Below, in pieces: positions 186-63,194 of a DNA stretch of 64,000 nt (within the stretch, counting starts at the first letter, position 1; every line of letters begins with the position of its first letter). The position numbers and the translations under genes were made by a program. Location of the stretch: contig CAWJLW010000006.1 of the NCBI GenBank assembly GCA_963843795.1, positions 868,001-932,000 on the forward strand. Reading direction: 5' to 3'. The stretch comes from an uncultured bacterium. GTDB taxonomy: Bacteria > Armatimonadota > Abditibacteriia > Abditibacteriales > Abditibacteriaceae. The notes beneath the pieces were generated by a model, which made no database searches, was not told where the DNA came from, and saw only the letters and a program-made list of their open reading frames with translations.

Positions 186-277
186 TTGTGGCACAACGAT
201 TGCCTTATCACCGTTGCAAGTACTTGCTGTGCCGAATTGCGCAACCGAATTGCGCGCTGCATTTCTAAAGTCGCGTT

Positions 278-1651
278 ATGTCTCGCTATTACGATTACGA
301 TGCCACTCCTTTCGAGCAACCGTTGCCCTCTCCCGATTGCACGTTGATCGTCCCGCTTTTGACCGCCTATTTCGATTTAGAAGCGGAGGGCGCTGATGCT
401 GCGCGCGTCCAAAAGCATCTCTCTGGCTGCGCGCGTTGCGCGAAGATGTGGCGCGACTGGGGCGATGTGCGATTCATATTGCAAACTCTGCCCACGCCCG
501 CGCCGCCTCATGCACTGGCTGCGCAAATCGTGCAAACGAGCCGTTTGACTAATATGCTGCCCGCCGCGCTGCCTACCGAGTTTGCGCGCGCGATCTCGCA
601 CGATGAATATGCTGTGCCGCCACAACTGCACGAAACCATTCTTGCGGCAACCACGCGCGCGCCGGTAAGTTCAAAACGGGCTGTCAACGGGCGTTTGATA
701 AGTGGTATCGCCACTGATGTCGTGACACAACACGATTTCGCGCGCCCTTTGCGCTCGCTGCGTCCTATCATGGCAATGGCAGCGGTGCCTGCACTGGCCC
801 TTTGGCTCATCACGCTGACCGCAGGCAATTCGGCGCTTTTTGCGCCCGCTGAAAATTCCGAAACTGTCGCGATTTCCGCCCCGTCGCAAATGCCAGCAAT
901 TAGCAAAGCGCCGCAGGATGAAACCGCCCAACCGCTTATCGCGCAAACCAGAACCGCAGCTTCTCTGCCCACGAGCGCAGCTTCCCAAAGACCCAGCGCT
1001 CCATCTGTGGTTGAGGCTGCACCCTCCTCGGCCAAGGTGAATTCTGAAACTACGGTCAGCCGCGTGCAACTCGAAAATTCCGTGGCTTTGGCGCGCTGGG
1101 TGGAAAGCGAAAGCCGCGCACCACAAGTTTCGGTGACTAATGCGCCGTCCACGATGACGATTAATCTGCGCGCTTCGCAACCGTTGCCTTCGTCTCCGCT
1201 GCCGTCAAAAGTTTCGGTTTCGGTCAAAGTTCAATCTCAATCCGCGAACATAACCCAAAGCGCGGCTCGTAGCAATGCGGTGGCTCGCACCAATGGCGCA
1301 CGCGTTGCTTTAAGGGCGAATGCGCCACGTCGTAGCGCGAAATTATCCACAGTCTCGATGACGGCTTCGGCGCTGTCTTCGGCAATGATGGTGCGCTCGG
1401 TTTCGGATGAAACTCCGCGCGTGGCGATGAAAATGGACGTGCCACCGATGCAAAAAGCCACCTTGCCCACAGCCGCCAGTCGCGAAGCCAGCGATGAATC
1501 GTTGTGGCAAAGCGACGTCGCGCCTGGTCGTTCAGCTCTTTCGGTTGTGCAGGCATTGAACGATAACCGTCCGCGCGAATTGCGTGACGCTTTCGACGCT
1601 TACGCGCAAACCCTGATGGACGATAGCGACACTTCGGCGTCCACATTATAG
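278..1651 (+). CDS. Putative anti-sigma factor (zf-HC2 zinc finger, one TM helix, low-complexity C-terminus)
   Basis: HLSGCARC matches HxxxCxxC, followed by hydrophobic AAVPALALWLITL and an Ala/Ser/Pro-rich tail. Confidence 0.7.
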   Translation: MSRYYDYDATPFEQPLPSPDCTLIVPLLTAYFDLEAEGADAARVQKHLSGCARCAKMWRDWGDVRFILQTLPTPAPPHALAAQIVQTSRLTNMLPAALPTEFARAISHDEYAVPPQLHETILAATTRAPVSSKRAVNGRLISGIATDVVTQHDFARPLRSLRPIMAMAAVPALALWLITLTAGNSALFAPAENSETVAISAPSQMPAISKAPQDETAQPLIAQTRTAASLPTSAASQRPSAPSVVEAAPSSAKVNSETTVSRVQLENSVALARWVESESRAPQVSVTNAPSTMTINLRASQPLPSSPLPSKVSVSVKVQSQSANITQSAARSNAVARTNGARVALRANAPRRSAKLSTVSMTASALSSAMMVRSVSDETPRVAMKMDVPPMQKATLPTAASREASDESLWQSDVAPGRSALSVVQALNDNRPRELRDAFDAYAQTLMDDSDTSASTL

Positions 1652-1667
1652 AATTCGCTTGAATAAC

Positions 1668-1709
1668 AGCCAAAAACGCCCTGCAAGTACTTGCAGGGCG
1701 TTTTTGGCT
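1668..1709. terminator. 42-bp perfect palindrome centred on GCAAGTACTTGC, likely intrinsic terminator
   Basis: AGCCAAAAACGCCCTGCAAGT|ACTTGCAGGGCGTTTTTGGCT, 17 nt after the stop at 1651. Confidence 0.8.
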
Positions 1710-1844
1710 TGGCTGCTTCTTGAAATAATTAGCGCAGAGAGCGATTTAATGTCGAGAAACTTTTGTGTCAGATAAAACTGTCGAAGCGATATTGAACTTC
1801 GATATTAATCGCATCTATCACATACGCCTAACTCACACCTTATT

Positions 1845-3782
1845 ATGAAAAATTACCTGTTAAGCGGATTAATTCTGAGCAGCGCACTGATTGTGCATCA
1901 GCTTTCTGCACGCGCCCTGCCAAGTGACTATTTTGGCATTCAAATCGTCGATGCCGAAACCGGACGCGGCGTGCCGCTTGTTGAGCTGACCACGACAAGT
2001 CAGCAGAAGTTTCTCACCGATAGCAACGGCTGGGTCGCCATCAACGAACCCGATTTGATGCAGCAAAACGTGTATTTTTCGCTCAGCAGTCACGGTTACA
2101 CGATGGACGCCGATAATTTCGGCTATCGTGGTCGCGCCTTCGATGTGAAAGCGGGAGCGCGCGCCAAAATCGCCATTAAACGAGTGAATATCGCCGAGCG
2201 CTTGTATCGTATCACCGGCGCGGGCATTTATCGCGATAGCGTTTTACTGGGCGAAAAAGTGCCAATTGCCCGGCCGCTAATCAACGGTGGTGTGACCGGA
2301 CAGGACACTGTAATGGTGACGCCGTATCGTGACAAATTGTACTGGTTTTGGGGCGATACCAACCGTTTTGGTTATCCGTTGGGCAACTTCGCCACATCGG
2401 GCGGAACTTCAGCGTTGCCAGCCCAAGGCGGTTTAAAACCAAATGTCGGCATGAATCTGACCTATTGGACGGACGAAAGCGGTTTCAGTAAAAAAATGAT
2501 TCCCCTCAGCGGCAACAGCGGTCCGGTTTGGGTCGGCGGCGTTTTCACTTTGGGGCAAGGCGCGCAACAAGAACTTTACACGCATTACGCGCATTTGGGC
2601 AAAGGCGACGAAACCACCGAACAAGGCTTAGCCTTGTTCAACGACGAGAAAGCGTTGTTCGAGAAAGTTCTGGCATTCGATGGCCCGCTTTATCCCGATG
2701 GGCACCCGTTCCGCGTGAATGTCGATGGCGTGAGGTATCTGTATTTTCAATCGAGTTCCCTCGAAGCGATGCCCTTGGTGCGCGTGCGCGCCGATAAAGC
2801 CAGCGTGATGAATCCCAAAGCCTATCAAGCGTTTACGCCGCTGAAAACCGGAGCGCAAAAAGATGCGGGCGCACAGATTGAGCGCGACAAAAGCGGGCGT
2901 TTGAATTACGTTTGGAAAAGTGACACTGCTTCGTGGGGGCCGGACGCGCGCCAGAAAGCAGTCGAGGCCAAGCAAATCACAGCCGCAGAAGCGCCATTCA
3001 CGATGCGCGATATTCTGACCGATTTGCCGGTTCAATCGCACGGCGGTTCGGTTTATTGGAATGCGTTTCGCCAAAAATGGGTGATGATTTCGGGCCAGAA
3101 ATTTGGCTCGCCGAGCTTCCTAGGCGAACTGTGGTTTTCCGAAGCTGACACGCCGACCGGCCCGTGGATTTATGCGCGCAAAATTATCACGCACAATAAA
3201 TATACCTTCTATAATCCCACACAACATCCGTTTTTCGACGAAAATGGTGGCCGCCGCATTTATTTTGAAGGCACTTATGTCACGACGTATTCTGGCAACG
3301 ATAACCCGACGCCGTTCTACGATTACAACCAGATCATGTATGCGCTGGATTTAACCGACGCGCGCTTGGATTTGCCTTCGCCGGTTTACGCTTTAGCCAA
3401 CGGCGAACACGCAATGCGCGCGCAAGTACTTGCTGACAAGAATTGGAATCAAATCCAAAGGGCGCCCTTTTTCGCCATGATGCGCGCATCCGAAAAAATG
3501 GTGCCGGTTTATCAAAGCGCAATTTTCCAACTTTCCACGCAAAAACCAAACAACAACGCTGCCGCACTTTTCTATGCGCTGCCCGCAACGCCCGCGCCCG
3601 ATGAAAAGCCCGCGCCTTCCATCGTGCCGCTATACGTTTTTCGTAATGGAAGAAATGTGCGGTATTCGACAGACGAGAAAACGCGCGAAAACGAAACGCG
3701 CGACGCACAGCCATTGTGCCGCGTGTGGCGCAATCCAACACCCACGCTAACGCTCGATTTCTCAGCGCAACCGCTGCTGTAA
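1845..3782 (+). CDS. Secreted hypothetical protein, possibly beta-propeller glycoside hydrolase-like
   Basis: Signal peptide, aromatic-rich motifs (YWFWGDT, PTGPW, YNPTQHP, IYFEGTY), 645 aa. Confidence 0.6.
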   Translation: MKNYLLSGLILSSALIVHQLSARALPSDYFGIQIVDAETGRGVPLVELTTTSQQKFLTDSNGWVAINEPDLMQQNVYFSLSSHGYTMDADNFGYRGRAFDVKAGARAKIAIKRVNIAERLYRITGAGIYRDSVLLGEKVPIARPLINGGVTGQDTVMVTPYRDKLYWFWGDTNRFGYPLGNFATSGGTSALPAQGGLKPNVGMNLTYWTDESGFSKKMIPLSGNSGPVWVGGVFTLGQGAQQELYTHYAHLGKGDETTEQGLALFNDEKALFEKVLAFDGPLYPDGHPFRVNVDGVRYLYFQSSSLEAMPLVRVRADKASVMNPKAYQAFTPLKTGAQKDAGAQIERDKSGRLNYVWKSDTASWGPDARQKAVEAKQITAAEAPFTMRDILTDLPVQSHGGSVYWNAFRQKWVMISGQKFGSPSFLGELWFSEADTPTGPWIYARKIITHNKYTFYNPTQHPFFDENGGRRIYFEGTYVTTYSGNDNPTPFYDYNQIMYALDLTDARLDLPSPVYALANGEHAMRAQVLADKNWNQIQRAPFFAMMRASEKMVPVYQSAIFQLSTQKPNNNAAALFYALPATPAPDEKPAPSIVPLYVFRNGRNVRYSTDEKTRENETRDAQPLCRVWRNPTPTLTLDFSAQPLL

Positions 3783-3827
3783 AAGCTAAAAGCTGCGCTG
3801 CAAGTACTTGCAGGCACGTTTTAAGTT

Positions 3828-4808
3828 TCAATCCAAGCGTACGCGCGGGTCAATCACGCGATAGGCCAAATCGACGGCGATATTGGCGACGACAACTGTG
3901 AACGCAGCGAACAAAACGGTGCCCATAATCATCGGCACGTCTTGGTTGGCAATCGAATCGACGGCGAGGCTTCCGATGCCGGGCCAGCCAAAAATCTTCT
4001 CGGTGAAAATCAGGCCGCTTAATAAACTGGCGATATCTAAACCAAGAATTGTGATGAGTGGAATGAGCGCGTTTTTCAAACCGTGCTTGGCAAGTACTTG
4101 CGTTTCGCTCAAACCGCGTGCGCGTGCGGCGCGAATATATTCTTGCTTTAAAACGCCGCGCATATTGGCGTGAAGCAAGCGCGAATAATACGCCGCGCCG
4201 CCCAGCGCTAAAGTTATCGCGGGCAAGGGCAGAGCATACCAACTCGCTTCGCCGCCGACTGAAAACCACGACCAGCGGTAGCCGACGTAATATTGCAGCA
4301 GTTTTCCCAGCCAGAACGTGGGAATTGAAAGCGCCAGAACGCCCAGAATCAAACTCAATCGGTCGAAGGTGCTGCGGTCGTATTTCGCTGTCAAAGTGCC
4401 GAGAGGAATCGCGATTACAAGCCACAAAACCAAACCGGTTGCGGCCAGCCACAGCGTCGCAGGAAAGCGGCGAGCGATGGCTCCGATGACCAGATCGCCA
4501 TTGCGATAGCTTTTAAGGTTATTGGTGAGGGCGTCGCGCACGAACAGAAAATATTGCGTGGAAAGTGGTTTGTCCAAGCCTCTGTCGCGTTTGATGTTGG
4601 CAATGGTTTCGTCGTCGGTGTGGTTGCCAGCGATGGTCATCGCCATCATCGTGGTCGGGTCGAGTGCTTTGTCGCTTTCGCCCGCCAAGCGCGATTTGCC
4701 CAAGCGCGGCACGACGAACAAAAGCAAAAATACGATGACGCTGACGCCCCACATTGTGACCAAACCCCAACCGACGCGCCGCAAAAACGAGAGAAAAACT
4801 GGATTCAT
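3828..4808 (-). CDS. Peptide/nickel ABC transporter permease (OppB/DppB family)
   Basis: GLDKPLSTQY, RFPATLWLA, EAA loop YIRAARARGLSE, FGWPGIG, IDPRVR. ATG at 4808 chosen as start. Confidence 0.92.
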   Translation of the reverse strand: MNPVFLSFLRRVGWGLVTMWGVSVIVFLLLFVVPRLGKSRLAGESDKALDPTTMMAMTIAGNHTDDETIANIKRDRGLDKPLSTQYFLFVRDALTNNLKSYRNGDLVIGAIARRFPATLWLAATGLVLWLVIAIPLGTLTAKYDRSTFDRLSLILGVLALSIPTFWLGKLLQYYVGYRWSWFSVGGEASWYALPLPAITLALGGAAYYSRLLHANMRGVLKQEYIRAARARGLSETQVLAKHGLKNALIPLITILGLDIASLLSGLIFTEKIFGWPGIGSLAVDSIANQDVPMIMGTVLFAAFTVVVANIAVDLAYRVIDPRVRLD

Positions 4809-8580: not shown

Positions 8581-8807
8581 CAGTTCGTAAATCTCATTTT
8601 TGCCAGTCAAAAACCAAGAAGCTATGCTTTTTATTGCATTCTCAAACGGTCGGTCGCACCCATTTTAGCCTACAAATTTTGGAAAAATAGTGTTGCAATT
8701 TATTAGCCACCCGGCTAACAGTCATAAATAATTTGCAGGCGCTGAAACTTATCAAATGAGTGCGATTTCAACTGCTCAGATTTACCGTTGCAAGTACTTG
8801 CAGCGTC

Positions 8808-10412: not shown

Positions 10413-10527
10413 GATGAAAATTGTCCGCTTCGCAGTTAAGCGCAAAATTATCGGCGCGACAAAAATATGCTGATTTATGGGTTAAAATTGCTTGTGCAAG
10501 TACTTGCACAAGCGACCAAGAATAATT

Positions 10528-11994: not shown

Positions 11995-12046
11995 GGAAAA
12001 CACGCGGAATTAAGCGCTGCAAGTACTTGCAGCGCATTGGAGATGC

Positions 12047-12475: not shown

Positions 12476-12553
12476 AACGCCATTTATTATGAGACATTCG
12501 CGCGACTGTCACCACGACACGACGCAAAAAATCGCCTGCAAGTACTTGCAGCA

Positions 12554-14127: not shown

Positions 14128-14200
14128 TCGTTTGCTCCTGCAAGTACTTGCAACGCACTTATTTGGGTGCGCTTTGGTAAAATAGGGCGCGCTTTCACTC

Positions 14201-15886
14201 ATGGCCTCTACCGATTCTTCATCATCGCCAACGCGCACACCACAAATCTCGACCGCCATGACGGTTGGGCGCGCTTCGTGGGTGATGGCTGCCATGATCG
14301 GCTTGTCGCGTTTGACTGGTTTCGGTCGTATGATGCTGGTTTCGCATCTTTATGGCAACGGCCCGCAGGCTGCCGTTTTTGAAGCCGCGTTCAACATTCC
14401 CGATACGATTACTATTTTAATCGCTGGCGGTGCTCTTGCGACCGGTTTCGTGCCAGTTTTTACCTCGTATCTTTCGCGCGGCGAAACCGCAGCTGCGATT
14501 CGCACTTTTCGCGCGATGTGGACGCTGCTCGGACTCACTTTCGGCGCGATTACTTTGCTGCTGCTAGCGCTCACTTACACGCCGTTCATTCGCTGGCTCG
14601 CGCCGCAACAAGTCGATGCGCAATATTTCCCGCTTTATCTGCAATTGCTGCGCATTTTATTACTGGCGCAATTTTTTTTCGTACTTGGCGGATTGTTCGC
14701 GGGCACGCTCAACGCGCTACGCTTGTTCTGGTATCCGGCCTTGCAACCCGTGATGTTCAATGGCGGCATTATCGTCTTCGGCATTCTTTTGCCTTACGGT
14801 TTTGGCATGGGTATCGAAAGCCAGGCGTGGGGCGCGCTCGCGGGCGCGATTGTTGGTTCGTTGTTAATTCAATTGCCCGCTGTGCGCCGCAACGGTCTCA
14901 GTTTGAAACCGCTGTGGGATTTGAACGATCCGGGCGTCAAGAAAGTATTGATTAGCTTGTTGCCGATTGTTTTCGGTTTGGCCTCAGGCCAAATTATCGC
15001 CCTCAATTTGCCGCGCTTTTTGGCCGGTGCAATGCTGCCGGAAAGCGCGCTGCCTTCGATTGGTTACGCCAATCGCTTAATGCAAGTGCCACTCGATTTG
15101 TTAGCGTCTGGCCCCGCCATCGCCCTTTATCCAACGCTTTCCTTATTGGCCGCACAAAACGATACCGTTGCTTTACGCGAGCAAATTGCCGGTGCGATTC
15201 GGCGCACAGTTGTTTTGACGATGTTGGCAACAGCACTTCTGGCCGGTTTGCGCGTGCCGATTCTGCATTTGTTGCTGGAGCACGGCAAGTTTGGCCCGCG
15301 CGAAACCGTGCAAACCGCACCAGTTTTGGCGTGCTATGCGCTGTGCGTGGTCGGTTTAGGAGCGCAGCAAATTTTGGCGCGCGGCTTTTACGCCAGTGGC
15401 GATACCAAAAAACCCGTGATTATCGGTTTGGCGGCGATGGGCTTGTTTGCTTTTACGGCGCTGCTTGCGATGACAATTTGGCCACCGCAAGTACTTGCGG
15501 CTGGATTTTTGAGCAGCGGTGCCGCGCGCTTAGCGTTTTGCGCAGCGCTTTCCGCAGCGTTTTTGGGCGTGGCGATGTATCGTTCTCTGGGCGCGCGTCT
15601 GGGAGGGTGGGAAGAAACCGGTTTGTCGTCTGTGGTCGGAAAATCTTTGCTGTGTGCGCTGTTGTGTTTACTCGTCGCCCAAATTGTGGGCGATTTGGGT
15701 TTGAGTTGGGAAAGCCGAAACCTAACACCACAAACTCCAGAAATCGGGATTTATCTGGTGCGAGGTTTGATCGTTTTAGTGGGTACTTTGGCGGGCGCGG
15801 GCGCTTTTGTTTCCGTCGCAAAATTGCTGAAATTACCGCTTTCGTTGCCCAAAAAGAGCGCCAAAGTCTCGCCGCGCGTGTCTTAA
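14201..15886 (+). CDS. murJ: Lipid II flippase MurJ/MviN
   Basis: SRLTGFGR, AAFNIPD, FVPVF, YANRLMQVP, RGFYASGDTKKP and many TM helices. Confidence 0.92.
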   Translation: MASTDSSSSPTRTPQISTAMTVGRASWVMAAMIGLSRLTGFGRMMLVSHLYGNGPQAAVFEAAFNIPDTITILIAGGALATGFVPVFTSYLSRGETAAAIRTFRAMWTLLGLTFGAITLLLLALTYTPFIRWLAPQQVDAQYFPLYLQLLRILLLAQFFFVLGGLFAGTLNALRLFWYPALQPVMFNGGIIVFGILLPYGFGMGIESQAWGALAGAIVGSLLIQLPAVRRNGLSLKPLWDLNDPGVKKVLISLLPIVFGLASGQIIALNLPRFLAGAMLPESALPSIGYANRLMQVPLDLLASGPAIALYPTLSLLAAQNDTVALREQIAGAIRRTVVLTMLATALLAGLRVPILHLLLEHGKFGPRETVQTAPVLACYALCVVGLGAQQILARGFYASGDTKKPVIIGLAAMGLFAFTALLAMTIWPPQVLAAGFLSSGAARLAFCAALSAAFLGVAMYRSLGARLGGWEETGLSSVVGKSLLCALLCLLVAQIVGDLGLSWESRNLTPQTPEIGIYLVRGLIVLVGTLAGAGAFVSVAKLLKLPLSLPKKSAKVSPRVS

Positions 15887-17309: not shown

Positions 17310-18403
17310 TGAAGTGGTCTAAATCGAAGAAATTGACGGGCTTTTCTTGCCCTCTTCCCCAACAGGAAGAAGGCAAGAAAGTTTGCTTCACCGCAATTCT
17401 AATCGCGCTGCAAGTACTTGCCACGCCCGTTCTCGCCCAGAACGCTCCGCAAGTACTTGCGCCGGTCGTGCAACCCGTCATTCCACCCGATGCCGGCGCG
17501 CCTGAACTGCCGGTGCCGCCGCCCGCGCCAGTTTTGGAACCGCACCCTTTTGTCTGGCGCGAATTAGCTTTCGATGGGTCGAATTCGATCAAAATTTACG
17601 AAGGCGATGCCGTCAATCAGCATGGTCAGCCGGTGCGTGCGTGGTACGCTGCTATAGACTACAACGATGAAGCTCTCCAAGCGCGTGCGATCTTATCGGA
17701 CGCGAGCCTTGGACGCGAACCAGCCAGCGCTCTGGCGCAAAAAAACGCGGCTTTAGTTGCGATTAACGGTGGTTATTTCGATGTGAAAAGTGTGCCGTCG
17801 AAAACATATAGCCTGGTGCTTAGCGACGGCCAAATTTTAGCGACCAATATCGCCGCAGCGACGCGTCCCAATGGGCGTTTTTTCTTGACGCGCGGTGCGT
17901 TTGGTATTCGCTCTGATCGCACATTTGACATCGCGTGGGTCGCGCATTTCGACCAACGCATCGTGGCTTTTCAAAATCCCACGCCCAACAGTTACTTCAA
18001 ACCTGCGCCAGCACCACAGGCCAAAGATGGCCGCGTATGGGAGATGAGCGAAGCGATTGGTGGCGCGCCCGTTCTTTTGAAGAATGGCGAAGTTCGCATT
18101 TCGAACGAAGCCGAAGCAATTCCTTTGGATATGACAACGGTGCGTCACCCGCGCACCGCGGTTGGCTGGAGCGGCGGCAAACGCTTAATATTTTTCGTCT
18201 GCGATGGCCGTCAGCCGTTATGGAGCATGGGCATGACGCTGCCCGAATTAGCGCAGACGCTGCGCGAATTGGGCTGCGTCGAGGCCTTGAATCTGGACGG
18301 AGGCGGCTCAGCCACATTCGTGGTTAATGGTCGCGCTTTGAATCGTCCCAGCGATGGCCGCGAGCGCAACGTCAGTTCGATTTTCGCGCTGCTGAAAAAA
18401 TGA
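17306..18403 (+). CDS. Secreted phosphodiester glycosidase (NAGPA family), second paralog
   Basis: AINGGYF, RHPRTAVG, DGR, ALNLDGGGS. Start uncertain. Confidence 0.85.
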   Translation: MMKWSKSKKLTGFSCPLPQQEEGKKVCFTAILIALQVLATPVLAQNAPQVLAPVVQPVIPPDAGAPELPVPPPAPVLEPHPFVWRELAFDGSNSIKIYEGDAVNQHGQPVRAWYAAIDYNDEALQARAILSDASLGREPASALAQKNAALVAINGGYFDVKSVPSKTYSLVLSDGQILATNIAAATRPNGRFFLTRGAFGIRSDRTFDIAWVAHFDQRIVAFQNPTPNSYFKPAPAPQAKDGRVWEMSEAIGGAPVLLKNGEVRISNEAEAIPLDMTTVRHPRTAVGWSGGKRLIFFVCDGRQPLWSMGMTLPELAQTLRELGCVEALNLDGGGSATFVVNGRALNRPSDGRERNVSSIFALLKK

Positions 18404-18431
18404 TGCTGCAAGTACTTGCAGCATCATTTTT
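18396..18431. terminator. 36-bp perfect palindrome filling a convergent gene junction, likely bidirectional terminator
   Basis: AAAAATGATGCTGCAAGT|ACTTGCAGCATCATTTTT. Confidence 0.75.
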
Positions 18432-21401: not shown

Positions 21402-21435
21402 AAATTTGCCCTGCAAGTACTTGCAGGGCAAATTT
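21402..21435. repeat. 34-bp perfect palindrome centred on GCAAGTACTTGC
   Basis: AAATTTGCCCTGCAAGT|ACTTGCAGGGCAAATTT between the fabG-like and fabF-like genes. Confidence 0.9.
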
Positions 21436-21514: not shown

Positions 21515-22687
21515 ATGGTCGCGATAACCGGATATTACGCGGCGTGGCGCGTTGGCACCGGCTGGCGTGAAATTCGGTCGTCGCCGTGGTCGCACACGCC
21601 CGATGTGCTGCGCCTGTGCTGCGACGCGGCGCGCGGCGAAAAACGCTCTGACGATGGCGTCGAAACTTTGCCTGCCAAGAATTATCGCGCGCAACCCGAC
21701 GTTTTGCGTTCGCGCGTGCGCGATGAGTTAGGCGGCGTCGGTTTGTGGGATCGTCACGGGCGGCGTTTGAAAACCGATCCGGAAAGCGTTGGCATTGTGA
21801 TGTCGTCGTCCAAAGGTTTTTGGCCTCAGCGCTTACAGGAACCGTTTTTCGATGTCGTCGATTGGCTGTGCTGCGATGGCGCGGCGCGCAGCGTGGCGCG
21901 CTGGCTGGGCACGCAAGGCCCGGTTTTGTCGCCGGTTGCCGCGTGCGCGACCGGCGCACATTCCATCGCTCTGGGCGCGAACTGGATCGAAGATGGGCGT
22001 TGCGATGTCGTGATTGCCGGTGCCGTAGAACGGCCCATCGAGCCGCTGATTCAAGCTGGCTATCAACAGTTAGGCGCGGTCAGTCACGATGTGATGCGTC
22101 CATTCGATAAGGCGCGCGATGGTTTCGTCCCTAATACGGGAATGGGGTTTTTGGTGCTGGAAAACGCCGAAAAAGCGCGTGCGCGTGGCGTCGGAACGCA
22201 CGCTTATCTCAGCGGCCACGCGTTGTGCAGCGATAATGGCGATGCTTTGAATATGGAAAATGATGGCGCGTCGATTGTGCGCGCCATCGAAAGCGCCTTG
22301 AAGCGCGCGCAAGTACTTGCAGAAACTGTTGATTATGTGAACGTTCATGGTACGGCGACTCAGCATAACGACCAAATCGAAGCGCGCGCTTTGCGCACGG
22401 TATTTGGCTTTGATGCGAAAAAGTCGCCGGCAAGTACTTGCAAGGCTTCTGCGACCAAACCGCTGACCGGACATTTACTGGGTGCTTCGGGCGCTGTGGA
22501 AGCAGTTTTATGTGTGCAGGCGTTGCGCGAAGGTTTCGTGCCGCCGACACTGAACCTGCACGATTTGGACGAAGACTGCGCCTTTAATTGGACGACGGGA
22601 ACGGGCGAACCTTGCGACATCGAGCGCGCTTTGTCGCTGAGCTACGGTTTCGGCGGCCATGTCGCGGCGCTGTTATTTGAAAAATAA
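21515..22687 (+). CDS. Beta-ketoacyl-ACP synthase, FabF-like with divergent N-terminus
   Basis: Cys-His-His triad (AACATG, VHGTAT, GHLLGA), RPFDKARDGF, SYGFGG. Start uncertain. Confidence 0.88.
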   Translation: MVAITGYYAAWRVGTGWREIRSSPWSHTPDVLRLCCDAARGEKRSDDGVETLPAKNYRAQPDVLRSRVRDELGGVGLWDRHGRRLKTDPESVGIVMSSSKGFWPQRLQEPFFDVVDWLCCDGAARSVARWLGTQGPVLSPVAACATGAHSIALGANWIEDGRCDVVIAGAVERPIEPLIQAGYQQLGAVSHDVMRPFDKARDGFVPNTGMGFLVLENAEKARARGVGTHAYLSGHALCSDNGDALNMENDGASIVRAIESALKRAQVLAETVDYVNVHGTATQHNDQIEARALRTVFGFDAKKSPASTCKASATKPLTGHLLGASGAVEAVLCVQALREGFVPPTLNLHDLDEDCAFNWTTGTGEPCDIERALSLSYGFGGHVAALLFEK

Positions 22688-22704: not shown

Positions 22705-23673
22705 ATGAACATTGCGATTTTAGGAGCCGGGGGTTTGGGCAAAGCCGCCGCGCAAATCATTGAACAAAAGCAGGACATGACTTTGGTGGCTATCGCCGAT
22801 GCCGGTGGCCTGGCGCACGATGCAAACGGTTTAGACGCGCAGGCGATTGCCACAGTGAAAGTCGGCGGCAGCGTTTCAGAGTTGGCTCAAGGCCGCGAAA
22901 GCGAAGATTCGATTGGCGAAATCATCGAAATGGGCGGCATAGATGGCGTTTTCATCGCTCTTCCCAATCTTCCCAATAATTTCATTCCGGGCATTACCCA
23001 GCGATTTTTGCAGGGCGGCTTTCAAGGCTGTTTCGTTGACGCCTTGAAGCGCACGCGCGCTATGGAAATGATGTTCGATTTGGACGATGATGTGCGCGCG
23101 GCAGGTTGCGTTTATCTGACCGGTTGCGGCGCGACGCCGGGACTTTTGACCGCAGCCGCAGCGCTCGCGGCGCAAAGTTTCGCTAAAGTCGAGAGCGTCG
23201 ATATTTGGTGGGGCGTGGGCATCGAGCGCTGGGACGATTACAAAGCGACCATCCGCGAAGACATCGCGCATCTGCCCGATTACGATGTTGAACGCGCCAA
23301 ATTGTTGACCGATGCAGAAGTCGAAGAATTGTTGAATCTCACCGATGGCAAGCTCATTTTGCACGATATGGAGCATGCCGATGACGTGATGTTGGAGCGC
23401 GCGGGCGTGGTTTCGCGCGACCGCGTTCACGTCGGCGGCGTGATGGACACGCGCAGCGCACAGAAGCCGAATTCGACCACAATGACGCTGACCGGCATAA
23501 CTTTCGACGGCAAACAATCGCAGCATCGCTTTATTCTGGGCGACGAAACTTCGATGGCGGCGAACGTGTGCGGCACTGCGCTTGGTTATCTGCGGCGCGC
23601 GCACTGGCTGCGCGAACGCGGCGTGTGCGGAGTGTTCGGCTCGGCGGAAATGATGCCGATGGTCGTCAATTGA
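22705..23673 (+). CDS. bioU: BioU-family protein (NAD(P)-dependent BioA substitute in biotin synthesis)
   Basis: Rossmann GAGGLG, LPNLPN, DALKRT (K115), TGCGATPGLLT, ATIREDIAHL, MEHADD (H224), LGDETSMAANVCG. Clustered with bioF and bioD. Confidence 0.8.
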   Translation: MNIAILGAGGLGKAAAQIIEQKQDMTLVAIADAGGLAHDANGLDAQAIATVKVGGSVSELAQGRESEDSIGEIIEMGGIDGVFIALPNLPNNFIPGITQRFLQGGFQGCFVDALKRTRAMEMMFDLDDDVRAAGCVYLTGCGATPGLLTAAAALAAQSFAKVESVDIWWGVGIERWDDYKATIREDIAHLPDYDVERAKLLTDAEVEELLNLTDGKLILHDMEHADDVMLERAGVVSRDRVHVGGVMDTRSAQKPNSTTMTLTGITFDGKQSQHRFILGDETSMAANVCGTALGYLRRAHWLRERGVCGVFGSAEMMPMVVN

Positions 23674-24401
23674 TTGAGCGTAAATTAACGCGTGCAGTTT
23701 TAGAACAATTGCCTCAGCGCTCTTTGCATCGCGCGCGCAACGCCACCAAAGCCGATGTTTACGCAGTCGCTTGGCCTCACGAAAAACATCCGGTTGTCGT
23801 GAAAGATATGCGGCGCTGCGCACTGTGGTTTCGCGTGCTGGCCGGACGCGCGTTTTTAAGGCGCGAAATGAGTGCGCTGCGTCTTTTGGCCGATTTGGCA
23901 AGCGTGCCGGATTTGGAAAGCCGCATTGATGCGGATGCCTTCGCGATGCAGTGGCACAATGGCGAAAAGTTGAGCGAGTGCGATTCCGCGCGCATCACAC
24001 CGCAAGTTCTGGACGAAATCGCGGCTTTGCTGGGCGAAGTTCACGCGCGCGGCGTGACGCACGGCGATTTGCACGCGCACAATATCTTGCTGGACTCAAG
24101 CGGCCAATTGTGTTTAATCGATTGGGCGACGGCGTGCGTTTTCGGCAACCGACGCACGCGGGTAAAGAATTGGACGTTTGAAGAATGGCGCGCTTTGGAC
24201 GAGCGCGCGCTGGCCAAACTGCGCGCCTTGCACGCGCCGCAAACTTTGAACGAGCGCGAGCGCGATTTGTTGGTCAATGGCGGTTCGCGCGCATATCGCG
24301 CGGTGAAAGCCAGTCGGCGGCGTTTGGATAAATTACGCGGCAAGAAAAGCGGCAAACGTGCTCAGATTTTGCAAAAATATGGCGCGAAAAAAGACGAATG
24401 A
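23670..24401 (+). CDS. RIO/Kdo-like kinase-fold protein
   Basis: VVVKD, HGDLHAHNIL, LIDW. TTG start overlaps the bioU stop (TTGA). Confidence 0.8.
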   Translation: MIERKLTRAVLEQLPQRSLHRARNATKADVYAVAWPHEKHPVVVKDMRRCALWFRVLAGRAFLRREMSALRLLADLASVPDLESRIDADAFAMQWHNGEKLSECDSARITPQVLDEIAALLGEVHARGVTHGDLHAHNILLDSSGQLCLIDWATACVFGNRRTRVKNWTFEEWRALDERALAKLRALHAPQTLNERERDLLVNGGSRAYRAVKASRRRLDKLRGKKSGKRAQILQKYGAKKDE

Positions 24402-24486
24402 AGGCTGCAGGCACTTGCAACCTTCCCTAATTATGCTTTAGATGTGCAGCAAGTACTTGCTGTGCCAGATTCAGGAGTTTTATTTC

Positions 24487-41133: not shown

Positions 41134-41177
41134 CGCAAAAAAGCGCGCTGCAAGTACTTGCAGCGCGCTTTTTTGCG
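41134..41177. terminator. 44-bp perfect palindrome between convergent genes
   Basis: CGCAAAAAAGCGCGCTGCAAGT|ACTTGCAGCGCGCTTTTTTGCG. Confidence 0.85.
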
Positions 41178-42320: not shown

Positions 42321-43262
42321 TTAACACGCCGCGCCCACAATTTGCCATTGCCACTCGACGTTTTGCGCGCCCATCGCGCCGGTAACTTTCAACTTTTCTT
42401 CGCCCCGCGCAGCAGCCAGAAAATTGGCAATCAGGCTATCGACGAAATCGGGACAAATCATTTCTCGTTGCTCGTTGCTCAGCACGGCGCAGAATTCGCC
42501 ATCTTTCTGACGGCCGCCCAAATCGACCACGCAATCGTCGAAAGCCACTCGACGCAGCGGCGGATTGGCTTCGGGATCGAAACGCACGATAATTTCCGCA
42601 CTGATGCCGCTCTTTTCCAATGTGAAATTCGCGCGCGTTTGATATTTATCGATTTCGCACACGATCGAAGCGGGCGCGATACGATCATCCGGCCCCGCAA
42701 GTACTTGCAGGATGCTCAAAGGATGCGGCGACAGGTCGATCCAAATTTGTGTGCCTTCGCGGTTGTGTTTGACGTTTTTAGTTTCCATTTCCATTTTGAA
42801 ATGGCGCAATTTTTCCTGATGTCCACAAAATTCGCGCATCGCTTGCACGCCAACTGCATATTGCATCTGCGTGCCCAGCAAAACCCCTTGCTGCCGCGCC
42901 AAATTTAATAATTCATCGCTTTGCTTTTGACGCTCGGCGGAAGAATCGGCGAAGACAAACGGTTTTTCGCACAGAACGTGCGCGCCCGCATGGAGACATT
43001 CGCTGACCTGCTCGAAATGGAGAATGGGCGGCGAGGAAACACAGACAATCTCGGGTTGAGCTGTTTTAAGGAGTTCGCTCAAATCGACGAAGCCGCGTCC
43101 ATCGAAACCGAATGCCTCGCGAAGCTTTTGGGAAGTGATTTCATTGCTGGCCGATGATGAACCAAGAAATGCCACGATTTCGCAGCCGTGTTTTTGTAAC
43201 CAGTTCGCGTGATTTTTGCCGATGCCGCTGGCACCCAAAACGGCAGCTCGAAACTGTTTCAT
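42321..43262 (-). CDS. Gfo/Idh/MocA family oxidoreductase
   Basis: LGASGIG, HVLCEKP, DLSPHPL. Confidence 0.85.
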   Translation of the reverse strand: MKQFRAAVLGASGIGKNHANWLQKHGCEIVAFLGSSSASNEITSQKLREAFGFDGRGFVDLSELLKTAQPEIVCVSSPPILHFEQVSECLHAGAHVLCEKPFVFADSSAERQKQSDELLNLARQQGVLLGTQMQYAVGVQAMREFCGHQEKLRHFKMEMETKNVKHNREGTQIWIDLSPHPLSILQVLAGPDDRIAPASIVCEIDKYQTRANFTLEKSGISAEIIVRFDPEANPPLRRVAFDDCVVDLGGRQKDGEFCAVLSNEQREMICPDFVDSLIANFLAAARGEEKLKVTGAMGAQNVEWQWQIVGAAC

Positions 43263-43472
43263 AGTTCAACAATTCCCCAATTGGCACGAAAACAAACGCG
43301 CCGGTTTTTTGTCTGATGACATCTTTGTGCTTTAATTTGAACTGACGTTGCTAAAATGGTTTGTAATGCGCTCATCGCTCGAATTTCGAATGAGGCGCTC
43401 GATAAATGCCACCACAATCGCATGGCAAGTCCTTGCCGCAAGTACCTGCTGTGCACAACGAGGAGTAAATTC

Positions 43473-47486: not shown

Positions 47487-47518
47487 GTGGCAAGTACTTG
47501 CAGCGCAGAATTAACAAT

Positions 47519-48487: not shown

Positions 48488-48526
48488 TCGCCCTGCAAGT
48501 ACTGCGCGCAAGTACTTGCAGGGCGA
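48488..48526. repeat. Composite inverted repeat made of two palindrome copies
   Basis: TCGCCCTGCAAGTACT-gcgcgca-AGTACTTGCAGGGCGA. Confidence 0.85.
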
Positions 48527-49587: not shown

Positions 49588-49853
49588 AGAATGAGAAAAG
49601 CAACTTGAGATATTTCCATTGTAACGCATTTTTAATGCAGAGGAGCAAAGCGAAAACAACCTTGACAACAAAATTGCGTTTCTTTAAAACGCGCATTATA
49701 TAACGCTCTATAATGCTAATTCCGCTCATTTTTATCACTCTTTGCGCAGCGCCCGACGTTCAAGAAGGTCTGTGGCTCCCCTGCAAGTACTTGCGCGCTT
49801 GCAAGTACTTGCAACCTTCGTCGTCACACGCCGCCGACTCATTTTTACAGATT

Positions 49854-51516: not shown

Positions 51517-51552
51517 CGCTGCAAGTACTTGCAGCGTCATTTAATAGCGTCT
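51501..51552. terminator. 52-bp perfect palindrome overlapping the 3' ends of two convergent genes
   Basis: AGACGCTATTAAATGACGCTGCAAGT|ACTTGCAGCGTCATTTAATAGCGTCT. Confidence 0.75.
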
Positions 51553-53172: not shown

Positions 53173-53223
53173 AAAACGCTCTGCAAGTACTTGCAGAGCG
53201 TTTTTTGCTGCAAGTACTTGCAG
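53172..53223. terminator. 34-bp perfect palindrome followed by a second core copy
   Basis: AAAAACGCTCTGCAAGT|ACTTGCAGAGCGTTTTT, then CTGCAAGTACTTGCAG (53208-53223). Confidence 0.8.
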
Positions 53224-55957: not shown

Positions 55958-55990
55958 AGAACCTCTGCAAGTACTTGCAACGCACAATAT

Positions 55991-56458: not shown

Positions 56459-56497
56459 AAAGTGAAATCGTGGGGTGCAAGTACTTGCAGGGAATTA

Positions 56498-58012
56498 TTA
56501 GGCGCTCAGGGCTGCAAAAGAATCTTTCAAGGCCGGATAAAGCGCGCGATAGGTTTGGTATTGCTTTTCGTAAATGCGGGCGCTTTCTTCGATCACTGGT
56601 GTCGAAGACACGACTTTAATGACGTTTGAACAAGCTTCTTCGACGCTGCTGTAAAGATTGGCGCCCACACCCGCCAAAAGCGCCGCGCCCAGAGCAGGCC
56701 CTTCATCGACGTTAATCGTGGAAAGCGGAAAATTAAACGTGTCGGCTTGAATTTGTCGCCACAAAGTCGAACGCGCGCCGCCGCCCGAAGCACGCACGTT
56801 ACCGATAGACACGTTCATGCTTTGCAAGATTTCCAGATTGTCGCGCAAGCCAAACGCCACACCTTCCATTACCGCACGCGCCAGATGGCCTTTGCCGTGG
56901 CGCACAGTCAAACCAATCCACGCGCCACGCGCGTTCGGGTCGGGATGGGGTGTGCGTTCGCCGGTGAGATAGGGCAAAAATACCAGGCCTTCGCTGCCCG
57001 CAGGTATGCGCTCGGCCTCGCGCGCGATCAATTCATACGGGTCAATGCCAATCAGGCTGGCCACGCGCTTTTCCGCTGAACACAGTTCGTCGCGATACCA
57101 GCGCAAACTTCCGCCTGCCGAAAGCATCACGCCCATAACGTGCCATTTATTTGGCACTGCGTGACAAAACGTGTGCACGCGCAAAGCCGGATCGACGGTG
57201 GGCTTATCGGCGAAAGCGAAAACGACGCCGGAAGTTCCCGTTGTGACGGAAATAATGCCGCTCTGCACGATGCCATTCCCGACTGCGCCTGCTGCTTGGT
57301 CGCCGCCGCCGCCGACAATTGGTGTGCCGACTTTTAAACCCGTAGCGCGCGCACCGATTTCGGAAACCGCGCCGGAAACTTCGCACGATTCATAAACTTC
57401 GGGCAGAAAATTCTTGTCGATTTGCAGCGCGCTTAAAACCTTATCGCTCCACTGGCGTTCGGGCACATTCAGCAGACTGGTGCCTGAAGCATCGGAAACT
57501 TCGGTCGCGAAAGCGCCGCTGAGGCGCAGACGAACGTAATCTTTGGGCAGCAAGTACTTGCGGGCGCGCTCATAGATTTCGGGCTCATGGTCGCGCACCC
57601 AGATAATTTTTGGCGCGGTGAAACCAGTCAAAACCGGATTGCAGGTTTCTTCAACCAAAGTTTCGCGCCCAACCGTTTCGGTAATCCAATCGCATTGCTT
57701 TTGGGTGCGCTGGTCGCACCACAAAATCGCCGGACGCAGTGGCTTATCTTCGGTATCGAGCATCACCAGACCGTGCATCTGGCCCGATAAACCGATACCA
57801 GCGATTTCATTAGCGGGAATTTCGGACGTGATTTGCTGCAAACATTGGCAGGTCGCGTCCCACCAATCGTCGGCGTTTTGCTCGGCCCAGAATGGTCGCG
57901 GTGTGAGCAGTGGATATTCACGCGTCGCGCTGGAGGCGAGATTTCCGCGTTCGTCGATTGCGATCACTTTGGTGCCGCTAGTGCCAATGTCAATGCCCAA
58001 AAGATAAGCCAT
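56498..58012 (-). CDS. xylB: Xylulokinase
   Basis: GIDIGTSG, SGQMHG, LPKDY, SDASGT, FLPYLTGERTPH, GGGARS.LW.QI.AD. Confidence 0.92.
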   Translation of the reverse strand: MAYLLGIDIGTSGTKVIAIDERGNLASSATREYPLLTPRPFWAEQNADDWWDATCQCLQQITSEIPANEIAGIGLSGQMHGLVMLDTEDKPLRPAILWCDQRTQKQCDWITETVGRETLVEETCNPVLTGFTAPKIIWVRDHEPEIYERARKYLLPKDYVRLRLSGAFATEVSDASGTSLLNVPERQWSDKVLSALQIDKNFLPEVYESCEVSGAVSEIGARATGLKVGTPIVGGGGDQAAGAVGNGIVQSGIISVTTGTSGVVFAFADKPTVDPALRVHTFCHAVPNKWHVMGVMLSAGGSLRWYRDELCSAEKRVASLIGIDPYELIAREAERIPAGSEGLVFLPYLTGERTPHPDPNARGAWIGLTVRHGKGHLARAVMEGVAFGLRDNLEILQSMNVSIGNVRASGGGARSTLWRQIQADTFNFPLSTINVDEGPALGAALLAGVGANLYSSVEEACSNVIKVVSSTPVIEESARIYEKQYQTYRALYPALKDSFAALSA

Positions 58013-60767: not shown

Positions 60768-60823
60768 TCTGACAACAAAAAAGCGCTGTGCAAGTACTTG
60801 CACAGCGCTTTTTTGTTGTCAGA
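60768..60823. terminator. 56-bp perfect palindrome between convergent genes
   Basis: TCTGACAACAAAAAAGCGCTGTGCAAGT|ACTTGCACAGCGCTTTTTTGTTGTCAGA. Confidence 0.85.
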
Positions 60824-60827: not shown

Positions 60828-62633
60828 TCAACGCGAGCGACCGCGCTCGCACGCCAGCAGTGCAATAATCAACGCGCCGATGGCATTGGCGATCATCCAC
60901 GGCAGCGCGATGTTACCGAATAATGACGGTGTGAATGGCGATAAGCCATCGACGGCTAGTGCCAGAATTAAGCACAGCGCCATGCCTGCCGAAAACGCGC
61001 CTACAACTTGACTATCGTGACCTGTTTCCCATTCCCAGAAGGCGACGAACGGGATTAGCACCGAAAAGCTGGCCAAATTCCACAACGAATTGTAGCCAAC
61101 TACATCTGCCGCGTAATCGGGCAGCAGCGCGCCACTGGCGAAGGCTAAGGCCAGACGAGCGCGCGATTTGCTGTCGCCGCGCGTGGCCAGAAAAACCAAA
61201 ATCGCTAGAAGGAAAACGCCGAAATTTTTGAAGTGCGCGTTGCGATTGAAACGACTGGCCATTGCAGTCGCGTTGCCCGCGTTTAAAATGCCGGTTCCAA
61301 ACTTTAATTTTTCGCCTGCGGGAATCGCCGAACGCTGCATTATATCGCGCACGCGCGCCGCATCATAAATACCCTGTGCCATCACCAAAGCGGCGACACC
61401 GGCGACGTGCGGTGAGGCCATCGAAGTGCCCTGAAAATGATAATAATCGCCGCCGCCCTCGTCGGGCGCTTCGCGAGCAATGGTATTTTGCAAGATGCCA
61501 GCGCTTGGTGTTTCGCTCATATCGCCGCCCGGCGCGGCTAAAGCCACCTGCGGTCCGTAAGACGAATAGAATGCCATTTCACGGCTTGGCCCGACCGAAG
61601 AAACCGCCATGCATTGCGCGAACGCCGCCGGATAACCGACCGGCTCGCCAAAGCCATTGCCCGCCGCGCACACAATGAGAACGCCCTTGTTTTTGGCGTA
61701 ACGCACGGCGCTGTGAATTACCGCACTGGGAACCATCGAACCCAGGCTCATATTGATGATATTGGCGTCGTTGTCCGCCGCGAAACGAATCGCGTCGGCG
61801 ATGTCGGCGCTCGTGCCAGAACCGCTCGCGCTCAGCACTTTCAGCGGCATAATAGTGGCTTCATAAGCCAGACCCGCTACGCCTTCATTGTTATTAGTGG
61901 CTTCAGCAATCGTGCCCGCGACGTGCGTGCCGTGCCCGTTATCGTCATACGGGTCGTAATTGTTGGCCACGAAATTATAGCCCGGCACGCGCGCGGTTTC
62001 GGCGAAATCGCGACACGCAGCGCGTTTGCCCGATGGCTCGATTGAAACGCCGGTATCAATTACCGCGACAATCACACCTTTGCCATGCGAACGTTTCCAT
62101 GCGGCTTCGGCGTCGACCATGCGAAAATTCCACTGCTCGTTGTAACGCGGATCGTTGGGAATCCAACTGACACCGCGCCGCGTTTGCGGAACAATAGACG
62201 ACTGCGAAACCGAATTTTCAGACGATTCGGGCGTGTTGATTTCCGGTGTCGTGATGCGAAAATCGGCTTCTGCCGATTGCACGCGCGCATCCTGAGCGAG
62301 CTTTTTCAGAATCGCGTCGCGGTCGGCGCCGGCGGGCAAAGTCGAGCGATACAATTGATTGGCTTTGGATTGCGGCGAGTTAAATTGTAAGTTCAGACCG
62401 AATTGCGCGTTCAATTGCTGCACATCGTCGGGCGTTGCGTCGTCACGCAGATCAACGATGATGTCGCGTGAAGCCAACATCGGTGCGTCGGTGGGCACAC
62501 TGGCGGTGCGCGGGGTAGAAATATCGGCGTCGCGCTGGCGCAAAATATTCCAGATCGGAATCGCGGTCGCGCCGATGATTGCCAAAAAAGCGATGATTAA
62601 AAAGGTGCGCGTGCGTTGCTGAGAACGGTACAT
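60828..62633 (-). CDS. Membrane-anchored subtilisin-like serine protease (S8) with C-terminal TM helices
   Basis: VAVIDTG, HGTHVAG, AAGN, GTSMASPHVAG. GGAGG RBS before ATG 62633. Confidence 0.92.
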   Translation of the reverse strand: MYRSQQRTRTFLIIAFLAIIGATAIPIWNILRQRDADISTPRTASVPTDAPMLASRDIIVDLRDDATPDDVQQLNAQFGLNLQFNSPQSKANQLYRSTLPAGADRDAILKKLAQDARVQSAEADFRITTPEINTPESSENSVSQSSIVPQTRRGVSWIPNDPRYNEQWNFRMVDAEAAWKRSHGKGVIVAVIDTGVSIEPSGKRAACRDFAETARVPGYNFVANNYDPYDDNGHGTHVAGTIAEATNNNEGVAGLAYEATIMPLKVLSASGSGTSADIADAIRFAADNDANIINMSLGSMVPSAVIHSAVRYAKNKGVLIVCAAGNGFGEPVGYPAAFAQCMAVSSVGPSREMAFYSSYGPQVALAAPGGDMSETPSAGILQNTIAREAPDEGGGDYYHFQGTSMASPHVAGVAALVMAQGIYDAARVRDIMQRSAIPAGEKLKFGTGILNAGNATAMASRFNRNAHFKNFGVFLLAILVFLATRGDSKSRARLALAFASGALLPDYAADVVGYNSLWNLASFSVLIPFVAFWEWETGHDSQVVGAFSAGMALCLILALAVDGLSPFTPSLFGNIALPWMIANAIGALIIALLACERGRSR

Positions 62634-62668
62634 AGTTCCTCCACTTCTGCCTGCAAGTACTTGCCAGT

Positions 62669-62863
62669 CTATTTTTCGCCGCGCAATTCGGGATGGCGCG
62701 ACAAAATATATTCGTAGCGGTCTTGCGTTGGCCCGCCGCGCTCGTCGAAACACGGATTGCCGCCCGCGTAGTGCGTGCCTTTGGCATCGCCAAACGGATT
62801 CAAGTCGCGCGTTTTGATCCAATTATCAATGCGCTTTTTGGTTTCTTCAGAAATCATACTCAC
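62669..62863 (-). CDS. Small hypothetical protein
   Basis: 64 aa, LNPFGD.KGT.YAGGNP.FDE...DRYEYI. RBS-like GAGGTG upstream and a palindrome copy right after the stop. Confidence 0.6.
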   Translation of the reverse strand: MSMISEETKKRIDNWIKTRDLNPFGDAKGTHYAGGNPCFDERGGPTQDRYEYILSRHPELRGEK

Positions 62864-63148
62864 CTCGACCGATATTTTTCAGAAGTTACTTCACTGATAT
62901 TATTGTAACGCTTTTCGGCCCCTCCTCATGAAAATAGTGCTGCAAGTACTTGCACGTCATCTTATGTGGCCAAATCTGTGTAATATATTAAACTGTCGGA
63001 GGTGAAACAATGCGACAAACTTTTGAAGAAGTGAGCGATGTGTTATTTTTCTACAAAGAAAAAGTGCGCCGTTTCTGGACACGCAGTGTGCTGCGACGCG
63101 GTGCGCTGAACAAAGCGAGCTATTGAAAATTGTTATTAATGACCAATC

Positions 63149-63194
63149 AAAACAAAAAAGGCTCCGCAAGTACTTGCGGAGCCTTTTTTGTTTT
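63149..63194. terminator. 46-bp perfect palindrome at the end of the fucosidase gene
   Basis: AAAACAAAAAAGGCTCCGCAAGT|ACTTGCGGAGCCTTTTTTGTTTT, overlapping the TAA stop. Confidence 0.85.

Follow-up and report, generated by a model that had tools for sequence, protein, structure and literature searches.

A hyper-abundant palindrome with species dialects around a GTAC core in Abditibacteriaceae

The stretch analyzed here, referred to as the window, comprises 64,000 nucleotides (positions 868,001 to 932,000) of contig CAWJLW010000006.1 from assembly GCA_963843795.1, an uncultured bacterium of the family Abditibacteriaceae. It is punctuated by exact copies of a 12-bp palindrome, GCAAGTACTTGC, and a reading made from the DNA letters without database searches (the sequence-only reading) had proposed that this word is a lineage-specific genome signal comparable to the highly iterated palindrome HIP1 of cyanobacteria and to DNA uptake sequences (DUS). 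Our analysis bears this out: the iterated palindrome is real, it extends over the whole source genome, and it is one among many species dialects built around a GTAC core. Copies in genes overwrite codons at an amino-acid cost, one site acts over 1-2 kb, and the flanks carry a helically phased A/T signal. The most likely reading, to which we give a probability of roughly 0.45, is that the palindrome marks DNA as "self", so that it is preferentially taken up or recombined during natural transformation.

Abundance of the palindrome in the window and in the source genome

The source genome (G000) comprises 4.30 Mb in 11 contigs, and the closest named homologs of one of its proteins carry the names Abditibacterium utsteinense, Abditibacteriaceae, and Armatimonadota, in line with the stated lineage. 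Our recount of the window returned the 44 exact copies of GCAAGTACTTGC that the sequence-only reading had reported, the first starting at position 216 and the last at 63166-63177; shuffled sequences held 0.02 copies on average and one at most. Eight further copies have one mismatch and five have two, close to the ten or so that had been estimated, and our own hexamer-based gene caller gave the same split into 13 genic and 31 intergenic copies. Genome-wide, GCAAGTACTTGC is the top 12-mer, with 2,567 copies (597 per Mb, or about one per 1.7 kb) distributed over all 11 contigs, so the enrichment is not restricted to one contig; 1,290 copies are extended to a 14-mer and 879 to a 16-mer. The word is self-complementary and half-sites are few. 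Approximately 506 copies in the genome have one mismatch; the GTAC core is broken in about 28% of these one-off copies, which show no concentration of changes at the word ends.

Copies are spread evenly along the main contig, at 47 to 83 per 100 kb, except in the first 100 kb (30 copies) and in the last 23 kb, which is motif-free. Inspection of open reading frame (ORF) translations placed the biggest gaps in an island rich in insertion sequences, in a type I restriction-modification (R-M) island, and in a VirB-like stretch with 67% GC. Contigs from public run X1, which may be the source sample, cover the window copies at 49783, 49801, and 57550 without any difference (8 of 66 pieces shown). 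No Rfam family matched the window. One element of the original description did not hold, namely that flanks are unrelated between copies: the flanks share a graded consensus and phased A/T, and perfect arms of at least 7 bp surround 523 of 2,560 copies. The motif-free contig end (G000:C6:3600000-3623414; 67% GC), which carries VirB-like and two-component genes, may be foreign DNA of recent arrival or the product of a chimeric join.

Species dialects around a constant core

The exact word is private to G000, with no more than three copies in each of 40 other genomes. The hexamer AGTACT, however, reaches 2,813 to 4,733 copies in 6 of the 27 family genomes versus 1 to 285 in the remaining 21, and such hyper-abundance was seen in none of the 275 other genomes sampled from the phylum (maximum, 1,197). 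Beyond G000, five family genomes thus carry variant words around the same core: CAAAGTACTTTG in G001, a congener of G000; TCGAGTACTCGA, common to G009, G015, and G019; and (G)CGAGTACTCG in G012. Metagenome contigs add others. Among 80 loci retrieved through the methylase described below, AAAAGTACTTTT is found in seven, and CAAGTACTTG and a loose RRAGTACTYY also occur. A second geometry, in which two GTAC sites lie 18 bp apart (GTAC-N14-GTAC), is present in two lineages, represented by G006 and by metagenome loci L400 and L403, whose inner arms differ from those of G006. With 1,378 split copies, G006 is the seventh iterator (a genome iterating its motif) among the 27 family genomes. We considered its word as a non-palindromic DUS and dropped this interpretation, since 158 of 197 half-sites are paired at a single fixed spacing; an 18-bp insertion was dropped as well, because six genic cases showed no constant indel.

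Dialects reach a density of about 600 to 1,200 copies per Mb, and every one of them has two-fold symmetry, with a constant core and flanks that vary together. In total, at least seven dialects and two geometries share one conserved methylase, and family genomes iterate, avoid, or ignore the same core. The sister genus g5 is almost devoid of it: 400 kb of G014 contain 6 GTAC sites versus 1,119 CATG sites. A MutL tree groups genera g1, g3, g5, and g6 against g2 and does not support the iterating genera as sisters; there may have been one gain or several.

Foreign dialect copies are clustered on single contigs of non-iterating genomes (G020:C179, G041:C61 and C269, and G024:C98), due to either transfer or mis-binning. 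In two other families of the phylum, f11 and f34 (e.g., G035, G101, and G154), AGTACT is nearly absent (0 to 54 copies per genome) and there is no methylase ortholog.

Placement of copies and their origin in genes

Genes in G000 contain 746 copies, whereas 5 to 9 are expected after synonymous-codon resampling. Motif codons encode 549 of 929 QVL peptides (0.4% expected), and the dominant frame, Q-V-L-A, accounts for 490 of the 746 genic copies. When genic copies were aligned with orthologs, 24 of 33 (G014) and 21 of 30 (G009) aligned without a gap, and the amino acids at the copies differed in 59-65% of cases, compared with 34-36% elsewhere in the same genes. Gaps near genic copies were about twice as frequent as in controls (9 of 33 versus 15.5%, and 24 of 88 versus 11%). 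These results show that the genic signal acts at the level of DNA and that copies overwrite codons at an amino-acid cost. AGTACT also stands at the corresponding position of the relative in 4 of the 21 gap-free alignments with G009 and in 3 of 5 alignments with G001, usually inside the relative's own flanks. This fits inherited cores with rewritten flanks; the alternative is convergence on permissive codons.

Spacers are much preferred: they hold 1.9 to 4.1 copies per kb versus 0.2 in genes, and about half of them are occupied. Hairpin arms of at least 7 bp flank 185 of 290 copies in convergent spacers but only 12 of 746 genic copies. The genic arms have no excess complementarity, and G009 barely uses hairpins (long arms at 1 of 26 convergent copies); termination, seen in G000 and G006 and not in G009, is therefore a secondary use of the motif. 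An apparent excess of target-site duplications was explained by GC-repeat hairpin arms.

Local saturation and helical phasing

The rate of genic copies in G000 depends on the distance to an intergenic copy: it is 0.08 per kb at up to 200 bp and reaches 0.3-0.5 per kb at a distance of 1.3-2.5 kb. This is a 4- to 7-fold rise over 2 kb, and control words and empty spacers remained approximately flat. Similarly, genes shorter than 1.1 kb contain 0.04 copies per kb when both adjacent spacers are occupied versus 0.29-0.39 when neither is. Saturation recurs in a second species: in 400 kb of G009 the genic rate goes from 0 to 0.97 per kb, with a coefficient of variation of 0.59 for spacing. The reach of one site is thus 1-2 kb, and genic copies, which are costly, are found where no free copy is near.

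Flanking A/T in G000 peaks every 10.5 bp on both sides of the dyad, near half-integer turns from it, and fades by 60-80 bp. The amplitude of this phasing is 0.035, compared with 0.003-0.006 in matched controls, and it is independent of the first A-tract. The signal is present at all codon positions, at four-fold sites, and in spacers, which rules out an origin in alpha-helical coding; general genome curvature is ruled out too, as the genome period is 11.25 bp and matched controls are flat. Close copies are also helically phased with respect to each other (129 pairs; Rayleigh R, 0.38; p about 1e-8).

An orphan methylase with probable GTAC specificity

The sequence-only reading had listed a methylase acting on the GTAC core among its candidates. 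G000 encodes a single PF01555 protein (C6:2517365-2518135, outside the window), a beta-class, RsrI-like enzyme with a DPPY motif. No C5 methylase was matched in G000 (PF00145 is absent also from G012) and no Dam-type enzyme was found in it; inspection revealed type I and type IIG-like ORFs elsewhere in this genome. Of the 27 family genomes, 22 have an ortholog of the PF01555 methylase, which is broken in two, and the neighbors of these orthologs are not conserved; the A. utsteinense enzyme is 77% identical. Outside the family, only weak matches in 7 of 275 genomes were detected.

Homologs of this methylase adjoin PabI-type genes and their hosts avoid GTAC, and for these reasons the specificity of the orphan enzyme is very probably GT(m6A)C. 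A PabI-family gene directly precedes the homolog in 6 of 102 metagenome loci (four full and two partial), and GTAC is the target of PabI enzymes (PMC4615327; here and below, PubMed Central accessions stand for the parts of these papers that were available). In the non-iterating branch (54 of the 80 metagenome loci, after removal of three duplicates), no 4-mer palindrome is depleted more strongly than GTAC (observed-to-expected ratio of 0.30 versus 0.83 in unrelated loci); CTAG comes next (0.37). In 20 of the 102 loci an unnamed nuclease-like gene lies near the methylase homolog. Neither a PabI gene nor this nuclease-like gene was found in G000 as a cognate restriction partner. The methylase proposed from the sequence thus has a specific candidate, but it cannot explain the motif on its own: genomes that avoid GTAC carry it too, and a second factor must exist.

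Several observations were made at these loci. L435, L436, L448, L461, L467, and L423 have PabI-family restriction glycosylases paired with a beta-class methylase; published methylase partners of this family are of the gamma type (PMC4615327). The nuclease-like gene (L460:10166-10840, minus strand, and 19 other loci, including G017 and G020) encodes about 215 amino acids with no Pfam match, has viral relatives, and has weak PvuII/ScaI-like look-alikes in the Atlas, which serve as leads only; it is a candidate for a new GTAC restriction enzyme. The G020 methylase (L190) groups with those of A. utsteinense and genera g1 and g6 and not with that of its own genus, suggesting transfer. G017 (L148) contains an array of attC-like repeats, probably a chromosomal integron.

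Search for the second factor

No iterator-specific gene was found among histone-fold proteins, HU, SeqA, MutH, PabI, C5 and Dam-type methylases, Y1 transposases, ComEA, ComEC, DprA, and minor pilins. ComEC, ComEA, and DprA are present in all five genomes tested, and the type IV pilus cluster is intact in G009 and G006. Two large PilX-like paralogs and the minor pilins were rejected as the reader: they do not track the motif, and the basic charge seen in G009 and G012 is not seen in G000. Across five genomes, there was no histone fold and no SeqA above the cut-off, and each had one HU regardless of the motif. The MutH family is missing from all seven iterating genomes and present in 4 of the 27 overall. 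The window itself contains mutL (31299-33227, minus strand), in which C/N/S-QHRAHE replaces DQHxAHE; we take this to be the nuclease motif with its first Asp missing. Every genome examined from the family and the class has this change, as does one of two others from the phylum, with the zinc motifs kept in the family; being class-wide and common to non-iterating relatives, it was abandoned as a lead. A single weak Y1 transposase match in G000 has no motif cluster.

Weighing the explanations

If the palindrome is a self mark in transformation, it would be recognized as double-stranded DNA by a protein with two-fold symmetry, which would bend some 130 bp around the site. Such a reader would recognize the GTAC core, very probably N6-methylated by the orphan methyltransferase, together with species-specific flanks, and one site would serve about 1-2 kb. 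Biased uptake would drive sites into permissive positions, and the dialect would shift whenever the specificity of the reader shifts. A dimeric, DNA-bending reader of a methylated site is suggested by the symmetry of the dialects, their constant core and co-changing flanks, the 1-2 kb range, and the phased bendability. The uptake role itself is supported by the dialects, the density, codon overwriting, saturation, absence from islands, A/T phasing, and the presence of competence genes and a pilus cluster. Precedents exist for many of its parts: DUS dialects have a fixed core and are used in terminators (PMC3630211); uptake signal sequences (USS) are spaced by about 1 kb, uptake drive gives them even spacing, and their AT tracts aid uptake (PMC7811141); the RAm6ATTY site of CtsM in C. 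jejuni is a methylated palindrome acting in uptake (PMC10046745); and HIP1 is a methylated palindrome that probably acts in cyanobacterial uptake (PMC13756078).

A number of findings weigh against the uptake role. DUS and USS are not palindromic and occur singly or as inverted pairs. The phasing is weak in G009 (0.012 versus a null maximum of 0.010) and not above the null in four smaller dialect samples, and in G000 it reaches 60-80 bp, beyond the length of USS AT tracts. Copies with a broken GTAC are more common in G000 (140 of 2,563) than in G009 (4 of 317). The methylase and the competence genes are kept equally in genomes that avoid GTAC, no uptake receptor was found, and iterating genomes do not differ from the others in minor-pilin content. 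The pilus cluster of G000 (C6:385799-406077; L482) has frame breaks in pilC, in the prepilin peptidase gene, and in two minor-pilin-like genes, and the adjacent ftsK is also broken; with 19 split events in 666 genes tested as the background in this genome, 3 fall within this 23-kb stretch. The breaks may reflect either decay or a local assembly error. Finally, saturation is predicted by a repair ratchet as well.

In that ratchet, the model of Elhai, a nickase acting on hemimethylated, flanked GT(m6A)C would direct mismatch repair, sites would become fixed up to about one per kb, and dialects would change as the nickase drifts. Palindromes are expected under this model, and so is saturation near 1 kb (PMC4390886), as measured in G000 and G009, and both the orphan, probably GTAC-specific methylase and the MutL lacking the first Asp of its nuclease motif would suit it. 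However, MutH is absent from the iterating genomes, the MutL change extends to non-iterating relatives, one-off copies are not end-concentrated and often break GTAC, unlike those of HIP1, and genomes with almost no GTAC retain the methylase; neither a specificity of 12 to 22 bp nor long-range phasing is predicted. We consider the ratchet improbable, slightly more so than a role in chromosome architecture, which we would also call unlikely. For the latter, about 130 bp at each site would be wrapped by a topoisomerase, a dimeric nucleoid protein, or a reader similar to SeqA that recognizes methylated or hemimethylated GTAC, and selection would maintain a site every 1-2 kb. This agrees with the strict dyad symmetry of all dialects, the A/T peaks near half-integer turns, the phased close pairs, and the even density along the replicon, and HIP1 has been linked to nucleoid structure (PMC5861425). 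On the other hand, the candidate proteins are missing (histone fold and SeqA) or do not vary with the motif (HU), and an essential structural site would hardly be expected to change so quickly between congeners or to be nearly missing from sister genera. A tiny mobile repeat similar to repetitive extragenic palindromes (REP) or small dispersed repeats (SDR), or a species-typical terminator loop spread by conversion, could account for the long hairpins with A/T tracts in convergent spacers, for the resemblance of GTAC-N14-GTAC to an 18-bp insertion with GTAC duplication, and for the doubled gap frequency near genic copies. Yet roughly 70% of the genic copies have ungapped alignments, no fixed-length indel was found, split form included, genic arms show no excess complementarity, long arms are rare in G009, and the sole weak Y1 match lacks a motif cluster. 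For the compact form this possibility is largely refuted, and overall it is very improbable, in agreement with the sequence-only reading, which had excluded a mobile element.

Returning to the self-recognition reading, we tentatively suggest a history for it, in which we have less than even confidence: an R-M system may have lost its nuclease, and the GTAC site may have gone from an avoided word to a genome-wide identity code with a fast-evolving dimeric reader, a 130-bp bend, and compact 12-bp or split geometry; in each species, this reader would have rewritten flanks by the thousand. If so, the family would have a species barrier that is gated epigenetically, comes in dialects, and falls outside known uptake families, and nature would have provided an experiment on what HIP1 does.

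Relation to known systems

The motif works like HIP1 or DUS/USS and is a member of neither, consistent with the initial remark that the word matches none of these signals; its core is GTAC and it is self-complementary. HIP1 (GCGATCGC) and the alternate HIPs (PMC4390886, PMC5861425, and PMC13756078) are likewise hyper-abundant palindromes that occur about once per kb, act at the DNA level, and have lineage variants; they contain the site of an orphan methylase, as is probable for the present motif. Repair, nucleoid structure, and uptake have been proposed as their roles. They differ in being cyanobacterial and phylum-wide, whereas the words described here have a GTAC core, are found in Abditibacteriaceae, span 10-22 bp, and change between congeners. 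HIP1 has a C5 methylase acting on its internal hexamer and end-biased one-off copies, neither of which is seen in G000; in addition, the present motif is strongly intergenic and helically phased at the bp scale, and sister genera are nearly without its core. The string GTAC does not occur in the main text of PMC4390886.

Our motif resembles the DUS of Neisseriaceae and the USS of Pasteurellaceae (PMC3630211 and PMC7811141) in having species dialects whose core is fixed, a similar density, copies that arise by substitution at permissive sites of core genes, terminator use, absence from islands, phased AT-rich flanks, and competence genes. Unlike them, it is self-complementary, so that one copy forms a hairpin, it is probably methylated, and no ComP- or PpdA-like receptor was identified. 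The RAm6ATTY signal of C. jejuni (PMC10046745) is palindromic and adenine-methylated in a competent organism, but it consists of just the 6-bp methylase site, whereas here 6-18 additional bases vary by species and the methylase is conserved. PabI/HpyAXII R-M systems (PMC4615327) have the same GTAC target, and homologs of the G000 methylase are partnered with PabI-family genes in hosts that avoid GTAC; unlike in type II GTAC systems, there is no restriction gene beside the G000 methylase. Dam/MutH/SeqA systems are set apart by the lack of MutH (0 of 7 iterating genomes) and of SeqA (0 of 5), and REP/SDR elements by the absence of constant-length insertions and of a REP-associated tyrosine transposase flanked by repeats.

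A literature check found no prior description of the motif in the papers searched under CAAGTACTTG, AGTACT, the dialect words, or GAGTACTC, although supplementary k-mer tables may list the motif. The assignment of the methylase, the rule of saturation over 1-2 kb, the helically phased flanks, and the split form are new here. For three decades the function of HIP1 has reportedly stayed open, in part because the signal is a single, almost invariant word in a single phylum. This family supplies replicates, with which profiling, methylomes, and pull-downs can separate uptake, ratchet, and architecture. If uptake is right, a further family of self-recognition signals would combine methylation and dialects. 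In addition, most members of this soil family are uncultured, and the dialects offer strong markers for their binning and provenance.

Similar words elsewhere

In a scan of GTDB contigs for motif pairs, none of the 82 loci listed (L001-L082) was motif-dense, and the matches were unrelated repeats. Some have a CAAGTACTTG core, which occurs in 22-bp tandem arrays (Segatella and Bacteroidaceae), in pairs with a distance of 20 bp (mycobacteria), and in a REP-like repeat of a Nitrospirales metagenome-assembled genome. No contig among the IMG/VR matches listed was both motif-dense and related to G000, and host phages may be missing from that set; no RNA-type holder of the motif was listed. Four IMG/VR contigs (L269, L288, L294, and L330; 38-43% GC) represent one or more unrelated phages in which GTGCAAGTACTTGCAC-like sites recur about 5 times every 15-20 kb, are apparently mostly intergenic, and probably serve as operators or promoters.

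Copies in the window and neighboring genes

Copies are given here by position, without strand. Those in tandem spacers lie at 216-227, 8790-8801, 12019-12030, 12538-12549, 27884-27895, 31277-31288 (behind mutL), 36611-36622, 38357-38368, 55967-55978, 56477-56488, and 62942-62953. Arms extend the tandem-spacer copies at 1683-1694 (by 15 bp, with A/T tracts, terminator-like), 21413-21424 (by 11 bp), and 63166-63177 (by 17 bp). A pair 18 bp apart (49783-49812) also lies in a tandem spacer and is present in run X1 contigs, and the copies at 24449-24460 and 48508-48519 are in either a tandem spacer or a gene start. By our own gene calls, 39239-39250 is in a tandem spacer and 62653-62664 in a spacer; both are within longer ORFs of the ORF list. 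Divergent spacers contain copies at 14140-14151 and, by our own gene calls, at 10496-10507 (arms of 6 more bp). In convergent spacers, copies at 3800-3811 and 47490-47501 are accompanied by those with longer arms at 18408-18419 (12 bp, resembling a bidirectional terminator), 29108-29119 (10 bp), 41150-41161 (16 bp), 51521-51532 (20 bp), and 60790-60801 (22 bp).

Genic copies occur at 3422-3433, 34049-34060, and 42697-42708, as a pair 39 bp apart at 17410-17460, and in genes for an ABC permease (4090-4101), a murJ-like product (15487-15498), a fabF-like product (22309-22320 and 22430-22441), a bioF-like product (26825-26836), bioD (27554-27565), and xylB (57550-57561, present in run X1 contigs); the copy at 31969-31980 encodes QVLA in the mutL linker. 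Another pair, 27 bp apart, is at 53183-53221, its first member having 11-bp arms, and one-mismatch copies form pairs 21 bp apart (33883-33915) and 13 bp apart (43425-43449). Biotin genes occupy positions 22705-27874 of the window, where BioU-like and BioF-like synthases are both encoded near bioD.

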